A DNA stretch of 64,000 bases from Pseudomonadota bacterium (lineage in GTDB: Bacteria; Pseudomonadota; Gammaproteobacteria; Burkholderiales; REEB80). A model generated the notes under the pieces. It saw nothing but the letters and a program-made list of their open reading frames with translations, was not told where the DNA came from and did no database searches. A program made the translations under genes and the position numbers. Where the stretch lies: assembly GCA_028873515.1 (NCBI GenBank), contig JAGWIG010000011.1:2991-66990 (forward strand). Direction: 5' to 3'. Shown in pieces: positions 1 to 50,730 of the stretch (position 1 is its first letter; every line of letters starts with the position of its first letter).

Positions 1-362
1 TCTTCCCCTGCCTTCATTTCATCTTTCGGTCCAGGAGTGCCTTGAGCTGGTGGCAGGCTTGCATAATAATTTGCCAGATTGTGGATGGTCATGTCGTCCA
101 GCTGTGCTGCCATACCCCACATGTAGGCCTGTGCATCCGGATCGGTGCGGGTCTGGCTACGAAAAGCCTTAAGCTGCTCTTCAATGTAGGTGGCTCTTTG
201 TCCTGCAAGCCGTGGGAACATTGGGGAGATGCTGATCCCGGCAGCGCCATGACAGGATGAACAGATTGAACTTGCAATGGTAGCCGCATCTTCTTGTGCT
301 GAGGCAGGAATCGCAGAAACCAGAAGACTCAGGCTTGCAAGGAATAGGAATAGGTTTCGCAT
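1..362 (-). CDS. c-type cytochrome, class I (c4-like); N-terminal 120 codons only, runs off the left edge
   Basis: Hand translation from the ATG at 362 gives MRNLFLFLASLSLLVSAIPASA (signal peptide), then a CSSCH heme motif and PRLAGQ...Y...QL, typical of c4/c552 domains. A Pro/Gly linker follows, suggesting a second domain. SD AAGGGAAG lies 13 bp after the upstream stop. Not in the ORF track because it is edge-truncated. Confidence 0.75.
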   Translation of the reverse strand, partial: MRNLFLFLASLSLLVSAIPASAQEDAATIASSICSSCHGAAGISISPMFPRLAGQRATYIEEQLKAFRSQTRTDPDAQAYMWGMAAQLDDMTIHNLANYYASLPPAQGTPGPKDEMKAGE

Positions 363-375
363 TTTAGCTTCCCTT

Positions 376-1773
376 TCAGAAATTGAACCAGCCAAGCAGG
401 TAGAGTGTATTGTTGTCAGACGCATTTCTGCCTAGGCCGTCATAATTGCTCGATCCGCCATTAAATTTTGTATACATGGTGTACTGGAGCGAGAATTTTG
501 TATTGAGCCACGGGAGATAATCCAGCTCTGCAATATAGCCTTGGGTATCAGGGCTGTTGCTTGCACTGCCTGAATAAGCAGCTCCCTGCGGATAAAGCAG
601 GGCATCAGATGTTCCAGTCGTATTGAAGAAGCCGAATGTTCCGCCAAGCTCATGATTATAGAGATAAGCGGCAGTCAGGCGCAATTCGTTAAGCTTGTCT
701 TTCAGGTTGGAAGCTCCCCCGCTGGCAAAGGCGGCATTAAGCGTCTGATCTTCATGAATGTAGCGGCCTTGCAGGGTTATAGCCTGCGTATCGGTAATCC
801 ACTGGTACTGGGTATCGAAGCTCACGTCATTGAAATTGTTGGTTGGCCCTTCAAGAGCGACGCCATTACCAGGAAGAAGCTTGGTATCGATGCCTGAGAA
901 CCCGGCTTCCCAGGAATTTGACCCCCAGTCTTTTTCCGCGGCGATTCTCCAGTATGGAGACAGACCACTTATGACATTGCTATCACCGCTGTCAAGAGGT
1001 CCTTGCCCGGTAATTCCGGTGGCACCCTGTCGGGCAGTACGGTATGCGGAGACCTCAGCATAGAGCCAGTTGTTCCACCAGACATAAGCACCCAGCCCGC
1101 CAACGTCTCCAGCCAAGGTTCCATCAAGCAGGGGAGAGGCTACAGAACCTGGTGCTGCAGAAGGTGTGCCATAAGGGAAGCCCCAGGCTGGCGTGCTGTT
1201 CCAGACATCTTCAACGCTTGGGTTATTGTTGAGGGTAAAACCCCAGACCAGGGGATCGTTTGGAGTCAGTGGGCTCTGGTAACGATCCGCAAAACGGATG
1301 TCCGTATTGTCCATACCCCAGCTTCCAGATCCGGCATCATAAGTCATCTGGATGAAAGCCCCCATCTTCGGGGCAAGACGGCCGGCATAGAACAGGCTGA
1401 CCTGTTGAGGAAACTGGACCTGGCCATTTTGTGCAAGTGCCCCAGTAAGTGCACTGTCTGGCAGTGATTTGTTAGTACGTGTTACGGATCCCTGGAACAT
1501 CAAGGAAAGAGGAGGAATCTGGTTAAGCAACAGGAGATCCCTTTGCGAGAGCGAACTCGCGCTGACCTGTCTGAGGTTATCGACAACATAGCCATTTAGT
1601 TTGAACTGGCGCCCGAAAGGGGTCAGTTCCGGGAACTGGGTGTGGCAGGCGATACATGCCATGCCAGTTTGTCGTGCAAAGCTAGGTACAGCTTGTGCGG
1701 TTACCGAGATGCCGATTCCTGACAGGCTGATGAGTAAGACACTTAATTTTTTGGCGTACCGGTAAGTTGCCAT
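376..1773 (-). CDS. secreted monoheme cytochrome c fused to a predicted outer-membrane beta-barrel (Cyc2-like candidate)
   Basis: The ATG at 1773 has SD GGAG 6 nt upstream; the track starts at the GTG at 1785. Signal peptide ends ...VTAQA. The single CXXCH (CIACH) lies 12 residues into the mature protein. The remaining ~420 aa are Gly/aromatic/polar-rich and strand-like, ending ...LLGWFNF (terminal-Phe OMP signature). Confidence 0.55.
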   Translation of the reverse strand: MATYRYAKKLSVLLISLSGIGISVTAQAVPSFARQTGMACIACHTQFPELTPFGRQFKLNGYVVDNLRQVSASSLSQRDLLLLNQIPPLSLMFQGSVTRTNKSLPDSALTGALAQNGQVQFPQQVSLFYAGRLAPKMGAFIQMTYDAGSGSWGMDNTDIRFADRYQSPLTPNDPLVWGFTLNNNPSVEDVWNSTPAWGFPYGTPSAAPGSVASPLLDGTLAGDVGGLGAYVWWNNWLYAEVSAYRTARQGATGITGQGPLDSGDSNVISGLSPYWRIAAEKDWGSNSWEAGFSGIDTKLLPGNGVALEGPTNNFNDVSFDTQYQWITDTQAITLQGRYIHEDQTLNAAFASGGASNLKDKLNELRLTAAYLYNHELGGTFGFFNTTGTSDALLYPQGAAYSGSASNSPDTQGYIAELDYLPWLNTKFSLQYTMYTKFNGGSSNYDGLGRNASDNNTLYLLGWFNF

Positions 1774-1831
1774 TTTATTCTCCACTGAGCGATGAACTAC
1801 ACTTGAGTTATTAAACCTTTATTCAGTATGG

Positions 1832-1872
1832 ATTCTAGTAGAATCTTAAAATACGATTTTGATGTAAATCAA
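1832..1872 (-). promoter_or_regulatory. class II FNR/CRP-family-dependent promoter candidate for the cytochrome operon
   Basis: A perfect FNR consensus, TTGAT-N4-ATCAA, sits at 1859-1872. 21 nt downstream on the minus strand is a TAGAAT -10 hexamer (1837-1832). This places the box centre at about -40.5/-41.5. Confidence 0.55.
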
Positions 1873-2307
1873 AATTGGTAAAGATTGCCCAGCCCGTTTT
1901 TTTATTAATCGGGAAAAGTGGGTTTACCGGGCTAAACCGCTAAAGCGGGTACAGGCACTGTTTCTTGACGTTTCATCCTTAAACGGCGATGGACGATTGC
2001 CTGTATTGGGCGGGTCTTGTGTTTATGTTTCATAGAGGTTTTATTGAGTAGCGGAACCTCTGCCCTAATTAGCGCCTAATTCCAGTTTGAGCTTGAAATG
2101 TCTGAGGAAGAATGTTTAAGGAAGGTTCACGCTACAGGTTACAAAAGATTGCGATTCATTTTTTCTGGAGCTCGGCATCCTGAGTGGCTCATCTGATCTT
2201 AGGCAATTACAAAGCAATCGGATTATCCTGTGACTTGATGGTTGGCAGGATATGGAGCCTTATCCAGGGTTACACTGAGTCAAGAGCATGGTTTTGGTGA
2301 AGGGGAA

Positions 2308-2637
2308 TCAGTGAAGTCCGGCAAGCGCGAGGGCTAATTCGGATTGTGAGCGTTTATACCGGGCTGCATGGTAGAATACAAACACCTGTTTGCTACGTAG
2401 CTTGGGCACGGTCAGTTGATACGGACCCATCCAGATATTTCTGGGAACAATTTCATCGAGATTGTGTGGCAAGTCGTCAATAAAAACCTGCCAGGCCGAA
2501 TCATTGCGGAAATATTCAAAAGCAACATCAGCATGCCGTTGTACTAGTTTCCAGAAGGATGAACTTGAACCTCGATACCAGCTACGGTAGCTATAAACGC
2601 AAGTCATAAAGGCAACAAGTGCAGCAAATTTACGCAT
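2308..2637 (-). CDS. hypothetical small protein with N-terminal hydrophobic signal/anchor
   Basis: ORF with the ATG at 2637 preceded by SD GGAGGG. MRKFAALVAFMTCVYS is a hydrophobic N-terminus. I recognise no family motif. Confidence 0.4.
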   Translation of the reverse strand: MRKFAALVAFMTCVYSYRSWYRGSSSSFWKLVQRHADVAFEYFRNDSAWQVFIDDLPHNLDEIVPRNIWMGPYQLTVPKLRSKQVFVFYHAARYKRSQSELALALAGLH

Positions 2638-2914
2638 TTTTGAGTACCCTCCGGGAATTGAAAGCAATGGCTTAGTCTGTATACGAAAGATACCATGGCT
2701 TATAGTATGCTAATGGCTCGAGCAGAAAGTGTAAACTTGAAAAGTATTATTTATTTATTTTGATGGCGGTTTTTTATGTAAGGCCATCAAGGGCTGGCAG
2801 GAGTATGAAATCCGGAAAACTCCAGTTTAGCTTGATGGATATTTTTGGTACGATTTATTTGTTGTCGGTTTTTTTTACTGCTTCGTGTGCAGGGCATTTT
2901 GTTCGGGACAGGTT

Positions 2915-3919
2915 ATGAGGATTAAGGGCTTTCTGGTTGTTCTTTGTTTGACCACAGGTATAGCCTGTGTGCTGCTACCTTCGTACGGTATGGCAGATCC
3001 TGTTGTCATCCAGCAGAAATTGCAAGCCATCCCTGATAACAGTGATGATGCCTTGGTGGTATTTGCAAAAGATGGCAGCGTAATTCGGGGAGATGATGCT
3101 CTTGATCTGATGCAGTCCAACAAGACTGATTTGAATATTTGGCTGGGCGGACGTCATTTTTTTGGAATTAAGGCTGTGATTCGTGCCTGGCAGAAGCGGT
3201 ATGGTGGAACTGTTGGCTTAATTACCCTTCCTTCAAAAAGGATTGCCGGGGGAATTGTTGATGGGGGCTGGATTTACCGGGGGAGGAGTTTCAGCATGCG
3301 CCCGGATGTATTCGGGATGATAGGAACAAGAGAGATCAGGAAATTGAAAGATGCCGGGCTTGCGACTGTCAACGTCACCTATGCACATAATGAGCTTGCC
3401 CTGATTGTAGCAAAAGGCAATCCCAAGCATATTCATCAAATTGAGGATTTGGCCCGGCCTAACCTGCATATCATGCTGCCTAACCCGGTTGATGAACGCA
3501 TCATGAAAGTCTATGCTCGAAAAATGCTGGAAAGGTTTCATTTGTGGAAGCGTCTTTCAGGAGGAAAAGATTGTGCGGCTTGCCAGGCAGGCCACGGAGT
3601 GTACTTTACTTCGGCACATGACCTGGAAATTCCTGAAGGAGTCCGTAATGGCCGGGCTGACGTGGGGCTATTATGGCTAACCGAGTGTCAGAATGCTCTT
3701 GGGCACCGATTTAATGTCAGTGTTGTCAGATTACCGCCTGCTCAGAGCCTGAGAGGCGAACTTAGCTATATTGCTGCAGAAGGATCCGCCATCCGCCATC
3801 CTGCTGCTGCCAGGCAGTTCCTGAAATTTTTGGGTTCACAGGAAGCCCAGTCGATTTTAACCAGGCATGGATACATAGGTGCAGATAAATGGGAGTTAAA
3901 AATACGAAAAATTAAATGA
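2915..3919 (+). CDS. periplasmic substrate-binding protein, ModA/SBP_bac_11-like fold, ligand unknown (no cognate permease or ATPase nearby)
   Basis: 334 aa from the ATG at 2915, with a signal peptide (MRIKGFLVVLCLTTGIA). Segments such as YAHNELALIVAKGNPKHIHQIEDLARP and GRADVGLLWLTE resemble molybdate/tungstate-type binding proteins. Confidence 0.5.
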   Translation: MRIKGFLVVLCLTTGIACVLLPSYGMADPVVIQQKLQAIPDNSDDALVVFAKDGSVIRGDDALDLMQSNKTDLNIWLGGRHFFGIKAVIRAWQKRYGGTVGLITLPSKRIAGGIVDGGWIYRGRSFSMRPDVFGMIGTREIRKLKDAGLATVNVTYAHNELALIVAKGNPKHIHQIEDLARPNLHIMLPNPVDERIMKVYARKMLERFHLWKRLSGGKDCAACQAGHGVYFTSAHDLEIPEGVRNGRADVGLLWLTECQNALGHRFNVSVVRLPPAQSLRGELSYIAAEGSAIRHPAAARQFLKFLGSQEAQSILTRHGYIGADKWELKIRKIK

Positions 3920-4216
3920 TTAATCAATAACTTCAATGTGGTTTATGATTTTCTCGGCACCTGCATTTTTTGCCAGAGCGTTTGCTTTGTACAAAAGCCA
4001 GTCGCTCCTCACGTGACCACGAAGTAAGATGGCTTGATGTTGAGTTAAGACAGTAATATTGTATTCGGAAAGCTCTGAATCCTGGCCGAGGGCCTTTTGC
4101 ACTTTCGCTGCAAGGGCGGCAGAATGATTCATGGGGATGGCTCTGGCAACAGAAGCCATGCCCGCCATCAAGATGACGAGCATGAAAGAATGAGTCCATT
4201 TTTTTAGTTTGAACAC
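3920..4216 (-). CDS. BON domain-containing periplasmic protein (OsmY-like)
   Basis: GTG start at 4216 with a strong SD (AAGGAGGAG). Signal peptide MFKLKKWTHSFMLVILMAGMASVARA, followed by a single BON-like domain (...LLRGHV...A..A.NAGAEKIINHIEV). The longer track ORF (to 4447) overlaps grxD and is rejected. Confidence 0.65.
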   Translation of the reverse strand: MFKLKKWTHSFMLVILMAGMASVARAIPMNHSAALAAKVQKALGQDSELSEYNITVLTQHQAILLRGHVRSDWLLYKANALAKNAGAEKIINHIEVID

Positions 4217-6304: not shown

Positions 6305-7389
6305 TAGGCAGAAGTCTCGCTCAAGGAGGCTAAAAGTTCAGCCTGATGTTCCTGTGCAAGGGGCTCAAAAAGATCTTCCAGATCGCCGTCCATGATTGCA
6401 TCAATCTTGTAGAGGGTTAAGTTGATGCGGTGATCTGTAACCCGGCCTTGAGGAAAATTGTAGGTACGAATCCGCTCTGATCGATCCCCGGAACCAATGA
6501 GAAGTTTTCGTGTAGCCGCTTCCTTGGCGTGGCGTTCACGGTTTTGTATGTCTTTCAGGCGTGCTGCCAGCACGGACAAGGCTTGTGCCTTGTTCTTGTG
6601 CTGGCTCCGCCCATCCTGGCATTCCACGACAAGTCCAGTTGGAAGATGGGTGACCCTTACTGCAGAATCGGTTTTATTGATATGTTGTCCACCCGCTCCT
6701 GAGGCCCTGAAGGTATCAATTCGTAGTTCGGAAGGGTTGATGTCAATTTCTTCAGCTTCATCGGCTTCGGGCATGACGGCGACAGTGCAGGCTGAGGTAT
6801 GGATACGGCCTTGAGTTTCTGTAGCGGGAACGCGTTGCACCCTGTGCCCGCCCGATTCGAATTTCAGTCGGGAATAAGCGCCTTCTCCGATGATGCGGAT
6901 AATGACTTCTTTATAACCTCCAAGATCACTCGGACTCTCGGAGATTAACTCAATCTGCCAGTTTTGTCTTTCGGCATAGCGGCTATACATCCGTAGCAGG
7001 TCTGCGGCAAAAAGCGCAGATTCTTCACCGCCGGTACCCGCCCGTATTTCCAGGAAAAGGTTGTGCTCATCATCTGGATCCTTGGGTAGGAGGGCGATTT
7101 CAAGGTCATGTTCGATTTGTGAAAGCCTTGCTTCAATACTTGTGATTTCGCTTTCGGCATAATCCCGCATTTGTGGATCCGACCGCATTTCATGGGCTGC
7201 TGCCAAATCTTTTTCCCTGTCCAGATATGAGCGATAAAGAGAAACAAGAGGCATGATTTCGGCATGTTCACGCGATAATTTCCGGTAGCTGCTCAGATCG
7301 CGGGTTGCGGTCTCCTGGCTGAGAAGGAGATTGATCTCCTCCAGGCGGTCGGCCAGGCCGGAAAGTTTTTGCTGGATTGAAGGTGTCAT
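6304..7389 (-). CDS. prfA: peptide chain release factor 1
   Basis: GGQ motif ([16 protein letters not shown]) and RF1-type PAT tripeptide (RVPATE); 361 aa. Confidence 0.97.
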
Positions 7390-8639: not shown

Positions 8640-8872
8640 GTTTTTCAGCTGTTGTCGCCTTGATTGGAAGGCGTTCACCCACTCCCGGGATGCGGGTATT
8701 GAGGCATCCAGGATGGAATCGAACTTTTTAAACTCTTCGGCAAACCATTATATCATTTTTTTTAGTGCCTCCCCAATGATAAGGATAAGGGGTTCATGTG
8801 CCGCGCTTGCTCATCGTCCTTATCTGGCTCTTGCGCCTTTAGCCTTCTGGACTATACGATGAACCAATGTGA

Positions 8873-10618
8873 TTGTCGGGGAATAGTGTGGACCTATCCA
8901 GTCAGTTGATGTTAATGGTCTCGTTGCTGTTGTTCGTGAGCATTATTGCGAGCCGGGTTTCGTCACGTATTGGTGCTCCGATGCTACTGGTTTTTCTCAT
9001 TCTTGGTGTGCTTGCAGGTGTGGGAGGGCCAGGTGGAATCCATTTTTCCAGTATTCCTGTTGCCCATTTTATTGGCAGCCTTGCTCTTGGCATTATTCTT
9101 TTTGACGGTGGGCTTCGTACCCACATCCGAGATTTCCATGTTGGCCTGAAACCCGCTTTGAGCCTGTCGACTCTAGGAGTGCTGGTAACAACCGCCCTGA
9201 CCGGTCTTGCCGCAGTTTTCGCATTGCACCTGCAGATTATGCAGGGAATGCTGCTCGGTGCCATGGTTGCACCCACTGATGCTGCAGCTGTGTTTTCATT
9301 GCTGCACCAGAATAGGCTCGAATTGAAACAGCGTGTTGCTGCCACCCTTGAAATCGAATCCGGGAGCAATGATCCCATGGCAGTCTTTCTAGTGCTGGCT
9401 CTTATTGCATCGTTACAGCTTGGTCATCCCCCGACAGTTTTAATGATTGTGAAGGGTTTTTTTTGGCAGATGGGAATTGGTGCCCTGACAGGCCTTTTAG
9501 GAGGGCGCTTTCTACTGGCCCTGCTGAATCATATTGAGTTGCATTCTTCACTTTATCCACTTTTGGCATTATCAGGAGGGGTACTGATTTTTTCAGGTAC
9601 CACACTCATTAATGGGAGTGGGTTTTTAGCCATCTATCTTGCCGGATTGGTGCTTGGAAATCACCCTCTGAAGGCCCAAAACAATATTCTTCGGATGCAT
9701 GACGGGTTTGCTTGGCTTTCCCAGATTATCCTTTTTATCATGCTGGGATTGCTGGTTCAGCCAAGCGCACTGGTGCCGATTGCTCCTGGGGCGTTGCTTG
9801 TTTCATTTGTGCTTATTTTTGTGGCTCGCCCACTTGCTGTTTTTTTATGTTTGCTCCCCTTTCGTTTCCCTTTTCGGGAACAGGCTTTCATTAGTTGGGT
9901 AGGGCTTAGGGGCGCGGTTCCGATTGTGCTTGCAACCTTCCCAATGCTAGCTGGTTTAGATCGTGCCGAACTTTATTTCAATGTTGCTTTTTTTGTGGTT
10001 CTGGTATCGCTAGTATTGCAGGGCTGGACTACGGCCTACGCTGCCAGGCAATTGCATGTCGAGGTTCCCCCTCAGCCAAAACCTGAGCATATTATTGATA
10101 TTGGCATATCCCAGGTAGAGGGTTTTGAAATGGTAGGGTATGCGCTGAAGTTGGATTCTCTTGCTGTTAATCAGAATGTTCAGCATCTGCCCCTACCTGG
10201 AGATACCCGGGTTATATTTATCATACGTGAACAGCACATTTGCATGCTAAAGGAAATAGACAGCCTTGCTGTAGGAGATTATGTCCTGTTGCTGAGCCGT
10301 CCAGAACATCTGGCTGCATTGAACAGGCTTTTTGCGGTGAGTGATGCCCCTCCCCGACTTGAAGAACATGAATTTTTTGGAGATTTTGTGTTAAATGGAG
10401 AGGCGAAACTAGGAGATGTTGGACTTTTGTATGGTTTCAGGGTAGTCAAGGATGATGAGAACATGACCCTTGCAAAATATATTTCCCGGTCTTTCAAGGG
10501 ACGGGCTGTTGTAGGCGATTCCATATTTTTGCGTCAAGTCGAACTGATTGTCCGGGAAATGGCGAATTCTATGCCAACCAAAATCGGCGTTAAGATTCGT
10601 CATGATGAAGAAATTTGA
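8873..10618 (+). CDS. K+/H+ antiporter, CPA1 family (NhaP2/CvrA-like) with C-terminal TrkA-C domain
   Basis: About 12 TM segments resembling NhaP2 (…LGVLAGVGGPGGI…ILFDGGLRT…) plus a soluble C-terminal domain. The true start may be the GTG at 8888. Confidence 0.88.
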   Translation: MSGNSVDLSSQLMLMVSLLLFVSIIASRVSSRIGAPMLLVFLILGVLAGVGGPGGIHFSSIPVAHFIGSLALGIILFDGGLRTHIRDFHVGLKPALSLSTLGVLVTTALTGLAAVFALHLQIMQGMLLGAMVAPTDAAAVFSLLHQNRLELKQRVAATLEIESGSNDPMAVFLVLALIASLQLGHPPTVLMIVKGFFWQMGIGALTGLLGGRFLLALLNHIELHSSLYPLLALSGGVLIFSGTTLINGSGFLAIYLAGLVLGNHPLKAQNNILRMHDGFAWLSQIILFIMLGLLVQPSALVPIAPGALLVSFVLIFVARPLAVFLCLLPFRFPFREQAFISWVGLRGAVPIVLATFPMLAGLDRAELYFNVAFFVVLVSLVLQGWTTAYAARQLHVEVPPQPKPEHIIDIGISQVEGFEMVGYALKLDSLAVNQNVQHLPLPGDTRVIFIIREQHICMLKEIDSLAVGDYVLLLSRPEHLAALNRLFAVSDAPPRLEEHEFFGDFVLNGEAKLGDVGLLYGFRVVKDDENMTLAKYISRSFKGRAVVGDSIFLRQVELIVREMANSMPTKIGVKIRHDEEI

Positions 10619-35938: not shown

Positions 35939-37297
35939 ATGCGGAAACGGGCCTTTTTTATTTTTTTCATGCTTACCGGATTTGTCCTGTTATTATGGGC
36001 AACCATCTGGCTATATTCAGCACATCCTTGTCGTCGGTTTATTGAAAATAAAATTGGACAGGCGCTACACCGGAAATTCTCTATTGAAGGGCCCATTTCA
36101 TTCAGGGTAGGCGATCCATTTCAGATTGAGATTGATGATTTTTATCTGGATAATCGGGACAGCCATGGGCGATTATTCGATGCCAAGCGTATGGTGATAG
36201 ACTTTGCCATCTGGCCCTTGTTTAAGGGGCAGTTGGGAATCAAGAGATTATTACTTGAAAAGGCCCATCTGAATCTTTCCTTTTCTCGCAATGGAAAATT
36301 GAATATTGATGATCTGCTTCATTCGGGAGGGCAGTCGCATCTTGTTTCCTTGCCCGGGAATTTAAGGATTCAGGATTCAGTTCTTGAGGTTAACGACTCC
36401 GAAAAGAGGGTTCAGGGAGAAGCATTGATTAAGGTTTTATCACTGGAGAACCCCTATAAACCTGGGGGAAAAATGGATTTGGCCGCCTATTTGCAGATGG
36501 GTGGAAAAGGACTTCAAGTATTGGCTTCAACAAAGATAAAAGCAGAGCCAGGGGTGAAATGGCTGGCCCTAAAAAGGGTAAGGGTTAAAGTTGCAACTTC
36601 CTGGGGAGGGCTTGATTTGATATCGCCGTCAGCAAGATTTGAGCCAGGTAACCGTATCCTGTTTAATTCATTCAATCTCCATTTTATTGGAACCAGGGAT
36701 CAATCTGTTTCTGTTATTTCAGGTCACGCAGAATTTTCAGGTGAGCGGCTGGCTTATGCTCGCGCAAAGGTTGAGGCGGAAGTACCAGGACAGAAACTTG
36801 AAATCACCTTACCAGCATATGAGGGTCCTTACACTGGAGAATTTCCAGTAGAATTTTCCTATCAGATGCAAAAACCCAGAATTGTACGTGCTCATGGCAA
36901 CGCTGACATCGGCGTTTCTGATCTGAAACAGGCGAGGGGGAAGTTTTCGCTTTCTTTTGGTATTGGGGATCCAGTTCATTCTTTTGAGGGCAAACTGGCA
37001 GGAAAGGCTAATGTAGATTTAAGTCAGAAATCCGCGGATCTGGATGTATCTGGTCTGATTGCCCAGAGTCCCGTCCGGTTGATAGCTCATTGGACTGGCG
37101 GTAACCCTTGGCACCTGGATTTGGATGGGAGGATTCAACGGCTTGATTATGCAGATCTACCTCATGGGGGGTCTCCATCCCGAAATTGCTATTGGCTTTC
37201 TGGACAGTTGCAGGCGGACAGGTTGCTTTTTCATGGCCTCACAGTCCATGGTGCCACCCTGACCTTTGATCCTCATCAATGTGCCTTTCTGCCATGA
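35939..37297 (+). CDS. AsmA family protein (short, 452 aa)
   Basis: N-terminal TM anchor plus an AsmA-like N-terminal region (...IEGPISFRVGDPFQIEIDDFYL...LFKGQLGIKRLLLEKAHLNL). Shorter than typical AsmA proteins. Confidence 0.55.
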   Translation: MRKRAFFIFFMLTGFVLLLWATIWLYSAHPCRRFIENKIGQALHRKFSIEGPISFRVGDPFQIEIDDFYLDNRDSHGRLFDAKRMVIDFAIWPLFKGQLGIKRLLLEKAHLNLSFSRNGKLNIDDLLHSGGQSHLVSLPGNLRIQDSVLEVNDSEKRVQGEALIKVLSLENPYKPGGKMDLAAYLQMGGKGLQVLASTKIKAEPGVKWLALKRVRVKVATSWGGLDLISPSARFEPGNRILFNSFNLHFIGTRDQSVSVISGHAEFSGERLAYARAKVEAEVPGQKLEITLPAYEGPYTGEFPVEFSYQMQKPRIVRAHGNADIGVSDLKQARGKFSLSFGIGDPVHSFEGKLAGKANVDLSQKSADLDVSGLIAQSPVRLIAHWTGGNPWHLDLDGRIQRLDYADLPHGGSPSRNCYWLSGQLQADRLLFHGLTVHGATLTFDPHQCAFLP

Positions 37298-50449: not shown

Positions 50450-50730
50450 TGAATTCAACCCCCTGCTATGCCCCTAAGGGCCGATTGACCTTTGATACTG
50501 TGTTGGAAATCAGGCAGGCCGGTGAAAATGCCATGATGAATTTGCCCATATGTTTTGATTTTAATGAAGTGACTCAGGTCGATTCTGCAGCCATTTCGCT
50601 GCTTCTGGACTGGAACCGTACTGCCAGGAAAAAGGGTGTAAAGCTGACTTTCACCCACATCCCGGATCACCTGCTTGACCTTGCAGGACTTTATGGCCTG
50701 CGTGATTTAATCATCCCTTCCCAGGCATGA
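50446..50730 (+). CDS. mlaB: STAS domain protein MlaB
   Basis: 94 aa STAS-like protein (…VDSAAISLLLDW…) immediately after mlaC, with overlapping stop and start. Confidence 0.8.
   Translation: MMNSTPCYAPKGRLTFDTVLEIRQAGENAMMNLPICFDFNEVTQVDSAAISLLLDWNRTARKKGVKLTFTHIPDHLLDLAGLYGLRDLIIPSQA

Follow-up and report, generated by a model that had tools for sequence, protein, structure and literature searches.

We describe here a perfect dyad upstream of a cyc2-like gene, within a 64-kb stretch of DNA that we refer to throughout as the window. On the evidence of its sequence and surroundings, the best-supported reading of this dyad is that it is a functional class II activator site for a regulator of the CRP/FNR family. 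A sequence-only reading of the same DNA had proposed just such a site driving a Cyc2-like/c4 gene pair, and the proposal is supported both at the sequence level and by comparative tests, which include the conserved geometry of homologous promoters, their phylogeny, and the recovery of the dyad in a de novo search.

Results

Predicted promoter of the cyc2-like gene

The window has a GC content of 48%, and the nearest named relatives of its RecG (~60–63%) are those of Sulfuricellaceae, Sulfuricella, Burkholderiales, and Hydrogenophilales, which points to an uncultured betaproteobacterial lineage as the host. The cyc2-like gene lies on the '-' strand, and the other annotated genes of the window have housekeeping roles (hemA-prfA-prmC, groEL, ubiCAD, recG, spoT, mla, and thiG). 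The features of the cyc2-like gene and its surroundings are listed here in window coordinates.

1..362, '-' strand: cyc1/c4-like gene for a dihaem cytochrome c, beginning 13 nt past the cyc2 stop; truncated at the window edge, with the first 120 aa present
376..1773, '-' strand: cyc2-like gene, 465 aa; signal peptide, AVPSFARQT, single CIACH haem site, PEL, predicted 16-strand porin, final F
1774..1823, '-' strand: predicted 5' leader of ~50 nt with GGAG ribosome-binding site (1783..1780); its last ~21–25 nt are nearly invariant among relatives
1824..1825, '-' strand: predicted transcription start, placed from the position of the -10 hexamer
1832..1837, '-' strand: -10 hexamer TAGAAT; TAAAAT in the related loci L001 and L002
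1838..1858, '-' strand: 21-nt spacer between box and -10; its first 11 nt (AAATCgTATTTT region) are kept in L001
1859..1872, no strand assigned: FNR/CRP-family dyad, a perfect palindrome whose arms reach 8 nt (ATTTTGAT/ATCAAAAT)

The box, TTGATgtaaATCAA or TTGATGTAAATCAA at 1859-1872 on the '+' strand, matches TTGAT-N4-ATCAA at all 10 specified positions, and reads TTGATTTACATCAA (1872..1859) on the gene strand. It is followed on the '-' strand by the 21-nt spacer, TAGAAT (1837..1832), GGAG (1783..1780), and the ATG at 1773. The exact FNR/Anr consensus box at 1859-1872, the TAGAAT lying 21 nt after it on the gene strand, and a leader of ~50–60 nt before the ATG at 1773 had all been noted in the sequence-only reading; the first two are borne out, and the third agrees with the predicted start. 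The 21-nt spacing to TAGAAT predicts a start at 1825 or 1824 and thus a box centre at -40.5 to -41.5; with the predicted start at G1824, the box centre (1865.5) would lie at -41.5 and the leader would be 51 nt long.

The remainder of the promoter is weak by the usual measures. There is no -35 hexamer, in that the sequence at 17-nt spacing, AAAATC, agrees with TTGACA at only one of six positions; TAGAAT is not preceded by the TG of an extended -10; and a sigma-70 scan of the region upstream of the cyc2-like gene finds no self-sufficient promoter. The missing -35 element would make the promoter dependent on an activator. We also note that no gene-strand terminator was found in the interval from the upstream 109-aa gene to the box, and read-through transcription may therefore also contribute to expression of cyc2-cyc1. 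The 109-aa gene itself is present in the closest relatives only, and was rejected as a member of the operon for this reason.

A stretch of ~435 nt (1873-2307) with no assigned feature separates the box from the 109-aa hypothetical gene. This stretch is kept at ~93–95% in L003, a strain 99% identical to the window, where a 44-aa ORF is called, and it is absent from the more distant REEB80 genome described below, in which the gap is 195 nt only. An Rfam search of window positions 1-4000 gave a sub-threshold chance match only, with no known RNA element in the upstream gap (~522–535 nt).

A Cyc2-type cytochrome-porin and its c4 partner

Published criteria for Cyc2 are a motif AXPXFAR[Q/K][T/Y] before a single CXXCH, a PXL after it, and a 16-strand porin of at least 365 aa (Keffer et al., PMC8406198). 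The 465-aa product has the signal peptide, the motifs, the length, and, in its model, the 16 strands that these describe. Its N-terminus is a Sec signal peptide (MATYRYAKKLSVLLISLSGIGISVTAQA) followed by VPS, CIACH is its sole CXXCH, and the motifs run in the order AVPSFARQT-GMA-CIACH-TQF-PEL; the AVPSFARQT, CXXCH, and PXL residues are invariant in a 22-sequence alignment of homologues. In an AlphaFold2 model of medium confidence (pTM 0.67, mean pLDDT 60.5), a helical N-terminal domain precedes exactly 16 strands, and the best Foldseek matches of the model are 16-strand porins (among them OmpC, OmpF, chitoporin, and Omp32), with E values down to 4e-6. No model in Pfam or NCBIfam matches the cytochrome-porin. 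From its motifs and modelled fold we assign the product of 376-1773 as a Cyc2-type cytochrome-porin with putative Fe(II) oxidase activity, mindful of the caution by Keffer et al. (PMC8406198) that function is uncertain for divergent Cyc2 clusters.

The window copy of the c4-like gene contains the first Cytochrom_C domain only, owing to the window edge, and each of the full-length orthologues, of 199 aa in L003, 202 aa in L001, and 200 aa in L028, has two Cytochrom_C stretches. The best PDB match of the L003 orthologue is 1H1O (E = 1.5e-43), which we take to be the A. ferrooxidans c4 cytochrome CYC41/Cyc1, followed by the cytochromes c4 8UF3, 6Q2U, and 1ETP. Assignment of the c4 gene as PdsA was considered and rejected (34 bits against a cut-off of 330). 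The c4 partner gene is present in 88 of the fetched loci, and we propose a two-gene operon in which the cyc2-like gene is followed by the cyc1/c4-like gene. The earlier description of a Cyc2-like/c4 pair is thus upheld by the Cyc2 motifs, the porin model, and the identity of the best c4 match.

The box is retained in a distant syntenic genome

The metagenome-assembled genome (MAG) REEB80, represented by loci L001 and L005, keeps the synteny of the window and is distant from it in sequence, with protein identities to the window of 58% for PrmC, 62% for both SBP and DLH, 69% for RecG, 84% for PrfA, and 85% for Cyc2. The 200 nt upstream of cyc2 align between the two in two islands only. The first, of 25 nt at 96% identity, consists of the box and the 11 nt after it, and the second, of 21 nt at 95% identity, lies directly before the ATG. 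The -10 hexamer of REEB80 is TAAAAT, at the same 21-nt spacing from the box. The box is identical in this distant MAG and in the 99% strains L003 and L085, although the four 99%-identical relatives (L085, L086, L098, and L003) do not constitute independent evidence. A metagenome scan for intermediate relatives returned only relatives at 99% or below 47%, and the distant ones (<47%) have no box.

Conservation within the two islands extends further than the dyad. The N4 centre of the box (TTAC) and the flank AAATC-N-TATTTT (1848-1858, '-' strand) are the same in the window and REEB80, while the neighbouring DNA is unalignable, and this identity exceeds what FNR contacts require. The ~21–25 nt before the ATG (TCATCGCTCAGTGGAGAATAAA; 1774-1797, '-' strand) are likewise identical or nearly so. 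The conserved flank and the pre-ATG stretch could represent a site for a second regulator or a leader element.

Two further observations concern the REEB80 locus. Cyc2 (L001:6001-7365) is as well conserved as PrfA and far above RecG, the c4 partner (67%), SBP, and PrmC, which is unusual for a porin-dominated protein and suggests either strong constraint or recent transfer. Downstream of cyc2-cyc1 there is a second dihaem cytochrome c gene (8815-9429), with a one-mismatch FNR-type box (TTGATTTAGCTCAA, L001:8573-8586) 236 nt upstream of it, and this box is without a clear -10 at 21–22 nt.

The box and its geometry mark one clade of the Cyc2 family

For a wider comparison, 80 loci were fetched from species-representative genomes, all of them MAGs, with each locus anchored on the PSFARQT motif. 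Boxes with one mismatch or none occur 16 times in the 250-nt upstream segments of 81 homologous loci, a density of 0.79 per kb versus 0.022 per kb over the other 638 kb of these loci, and thus a 36-fold enrichment. Eleven of the 16 are centred 161–179 nt from the AVPSFARQT anchor, that of the window being at 179.

The box-bearing loci are not scattered through the family. In a neighbor-joining tree they form one Burkholderiales/betaproteobacterial clade of 16 members, together with the window/REEB80 pair and L068. Within the tree-defined clade, the box has at most one mismatch in 12 of 16 members and at most two in every one of the 16; the window with L005, and L068, are also box-bearing at the two-mismatch threshold. 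Outside the clade a box with at most one mismatch is found in none of 62 loci (L008–L084; Steroidobacteraceae, gammaproteobacterial, and other), their upstream GC content being similar (0.59 vs 0.56). The sister clades of the cyc2-cyc1 family, having no FNR-type box, must be regulated differently.

The spacing is conserved along with the box. In 17 of the 19 box-bearing promoters the box is followed, at exactly 21 or 22 nt, by a -10-like hexamer (TAGAAT, TAAAAT, CAGAAT, TAGGCT, CAGACT, and similar), where other offsets average 0.5 loci each; this 19-locus set includes the window, L005, and L068, which were added because they are box-bearing, and the figures for the clade alone stand apart from it. 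The box, the 21–22-nt spacing, and the distance to the gene are kept in orthologous promoters of genomes that range from 48 to 70% GC.

A de novo search does not presuppose the consensus. Among all 4-mer dyads with gaps of 0–10 nt in the promoters of the tree-defined clade, with the window lineage excluded, TTGA-N6-TCAA is the only one to reach a threshold of 5 of 16 promoters, with 10 of the 16 containing it, vs 0 of 62 outside. TTGA, T11, and A13 do not vary among the clade boxes and the centre is unconstrained; one half-site reads TTAA instead of TCAA in five members of the clade. Invariant arms with a free centre are the signature of the CRP/FNR family. One promoter, that of L068, has two perfect boxes in tandem (TTGATGCCCATCAA and TTGATGCCGATCAA), which are centred 178 and 147 nt from the PSFARQT anchor on its upstream side; they are 31 nt apart centre to centre, about three helical turns, and this is the sole tandem promoter.

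These data bear on whether the dyad might instead be the operator of a repressor, or the site of an unrelated dimeric protein, with the promoter located elsewhere, for example at TATTTT or TAAGAT just downstream. TATTTT (1853..1848) is common to the window, L001, and L002 and would place the box at about -25, a repressing position, and the N4 centre and 3' flank are, as noted above, conserved beyond the needs of FNR. However, TATTTT is not conserved in the wider clade, the -10-like hexamer at 21–22 nt recurs in 17 of 19 promoters, and the combination of invariant TTGA/T-AA arms with a free centre is that expected of CRP/FNR proteins. We consider an operator or an unrelated site very improbable, and favor a class II activator site.

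Chance occurrence of the box

Dinucleotide-preserving shuffles give an expectation of 0.21 perfect boxes per window, so that the value of 0.06 in 64 kb put forward in the sequence-only reading is too low by ~3.5-fold, and a second perfect match had been overlooked. The window contains two perfect matches to TTGAT-N4-ATCAA, and two or more are seen in 3 of 100 shuffles. The second (TTGATCCTCATCAA, 37266-37279) lies in coding DNA, where the 3' end of an AsmA-family gene overlaps the mutY start codon; it is probably a chance occurrence, and it illustrates that perfect matches can arise without a role as a promoter element. Relaxed matches with at most two mismatches are at chance level (52 found vs 47.7 expected), and for this reason the remaining boxes with one or two mismatches in the window were rejected as sites. 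A one-mismatch box (TTGATTTTAATGAA, 50555-50568) lies between mlaC and the next ABC transporter gene and looks intergenic in the ORF list; a small mlaB-like (STAS) ORF of <100 aa is expected in this stretch, and the box is probably intergenic in appearance only.

The presence of the second perfect match in coding DNA, the 3 in 100 shuffles with at least two, and the chance-level number of relaxed matches are all compatible with the box upstream of cyc2 being a functionless palindrome that has arisen by chance in AT-rich intergenic DNA. Its location speaks against this, as the chance of a perfect box is 0.00085 in the 522-nt gap and 0.00025 in the proximal 200 nt. Moreover, the exact box is kept in REEB80, a genome in which several syntenic proteins are only 58–69% identical and the flanks are unalignable, and boxes are enriched 36-fold in a clade-specific manner and with fixed geometry. 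A chance origin is extremely improbable, and we regard it as effectively refuted by the comparative data.

A candidate regulator

No CRP/FNR-family gene was found in the 64-kb window, either with a regular expression for the E--SR recognition helix or with phmmer and an E. coli FNR query. Among the flanks of the loci there is one FNR homologue only, at L028:1676-2434 ('-' strand) in a Lysobacteraceae MAG, where it lies ~1.5 kb upstream of a cyc2 that bears the box. The protein contains a C-x2-C-x5-C cluster, a central Cys, an ETVSR recognition helix, and cNMP_binding and HTH_Crp_2 domains, and its best NCBIfam match is Fnr. Although a single case, it shows that among box-bearing members there is a regulator of the expected type and that its gene can be linked to cyc2. 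The 7-kb L028 locus has boxes at 30-43, 3896-3909, and 6463-6476; two of these are additional to that of cyc2, one of them perfect, and they adjoin genes without a Pfam match.

The exact FNR consensus of the box, taken together with the Cys cluster in the sole linked regulator, leads us to favor an O2-labile sensor of the FNR/Anr type as the regulator, which we think is probable and the most likely identity. A plausible but distinctly less likely alternative retains the same class II architecture and assigns the site to a paralogue that does not sense oxygen, either Dnr/NnrR, which responds to NO, or FixK, which is controlled by FixLJ. In that case the operon would be part of a regulon for denitrification or another process, with no direct response to oxygen. 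The sequence-only reading had itself allowed for a Dnr/NnrR-type regulator. FixK- and Dnr-type proteins also recognise a TTGA-N6-TCAA core, this is the core found in the clade (often with GTCAA in the second half-site), and FNR/Anr sites cannot be told from those of Dnr, NnrR, or FixK paralogues by their half-sites; no regulator gene was found in the 64-kb window. Set against these points, the only linked regulator has the full FNR cysteine set, the window box agrees exactly with the FNR/Anr consensus, T5 and A10 included, and nir, nor, nos, or fixLJ did not turn up among the annotated genes of the window or in what was noted of the loci.

Discussion

The geometry of the site suggests a simple model for its action. 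The box, ~41.5 bp upstream of the start, would be bound by a dimeric CRP/FNR-family regulator, for which an O2-labile [4Fe-4S] protein of the FNR/Anr type is the most likely candidate. The site would overlap the place of the missing -35 element, and the bound dimer would replace the missing -35 contact and recruit RNA polymerase to TAGAAT. We infer the transcription start from the position of this hexamer, and likewise infer the identity of the regulator, activation as opposed to repression, and oxygen as the signal. The outer-membrane cytochrome-porin and its periplasmic c4 partner would then be made when oxygen is scarce, which at neutral pH is also when Fe(II) persists. Because Fe(II) persists at neutral pH only at low oxygen, low-oxygen induction of an Fe(II) oxidase and its c4 shuttle would make sense, and FNR control would fit a role in anaerobic electron transfer equally well.

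As a marker gene for neutrophilic microbial iron oxidation, Cyc2 is the leading candidate. Very little has been described of its regulation, and in the numerous homologues from bacteria other than iron oxidisers its function is uncertain. The conserved class II promoter predicts induction under oxygen limitation through a CRP/FNR regulator, and it is quite possible, with the odds a little short of even, that FNR-type control is an ancestral and clade-wide trait of a betaproteobacterial branch of Cyc2 that is large and has hardly any cultured members. If so, cyc2-cyc1 modules would belong to a low-oxygen or anaerobic regulon, and many Burkholderiales-type bacteria of soil and freshwater that are not known to be iron oxidisers would switch on an outer-membrane Fe(II) oxidase when oxygen runs out; alternatively, the module may be a reversible conduit for extracellular electrons, coupled for example to nitrate. 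Either way, this would provide a first regulatory handle on Cyc2 outside acidophiles. The box would also be a sequence signature that splits the Cyc2 family into differently regulated clades, and as such could aid the reading of cyc2 signals in metatranscriptomes along redox gradients.

Comparison with known systems

Class II FNR-dependent promoters are well established in E. coli at narG, nirB, and dmsA, as well as in the FF-41.5 model promoter, and Pseudomonas has Anr-dependent counterparts. The cyc2 promoter resembles these in having TTGAT-N4-ATCAA, 21–22 nt between the box and the -10, a box centre (here predicted) near -41.5, a weak or absent -35, and a respiratory operon as its target. 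It differs from the E. coli and Pseudomonas cases in that its host is an uncultured betaproteobacterium, its target is an outer-membrane cytochrome-porin operon and not a classical member of the regulon, and its binding and O2 dependence are predicted.

The rus operon of A. ferrooxidans has the order cyc2-cyc1-cup-coxBACD-rus (PMC10654088), and the window operon shares its first two genes and their order, the gene for a dihaem c4 cytochrome coming after that for a Cyc2 fused cytochrome-porin. Unlike in the rus operon, no cup, cox, or rus genes lie downstream in the loci of the relatives. The two also differ in their control, in that RegB/RegA, with sigma-70 promoters, and not an FNR box, reportedly governs the rus operon (PMC5506826). 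With respect to the protein, the arrangement AXPXFAR[Q/K][T/Y]-CXXCH-PXL and the predicted 16-strand porin are like those of Cyc2 of Mariprofundus PV-1 and the products of the three cyc2 genes of Sideroxydans lithotrophicus ES-1, of which cyc2_1 is highly expressed in all conditions tested with no regulator identified (PMC8788666). In the literature searched we found no link of cyc2 to FNR or Anr. The promoter type and mechanism are textbook.
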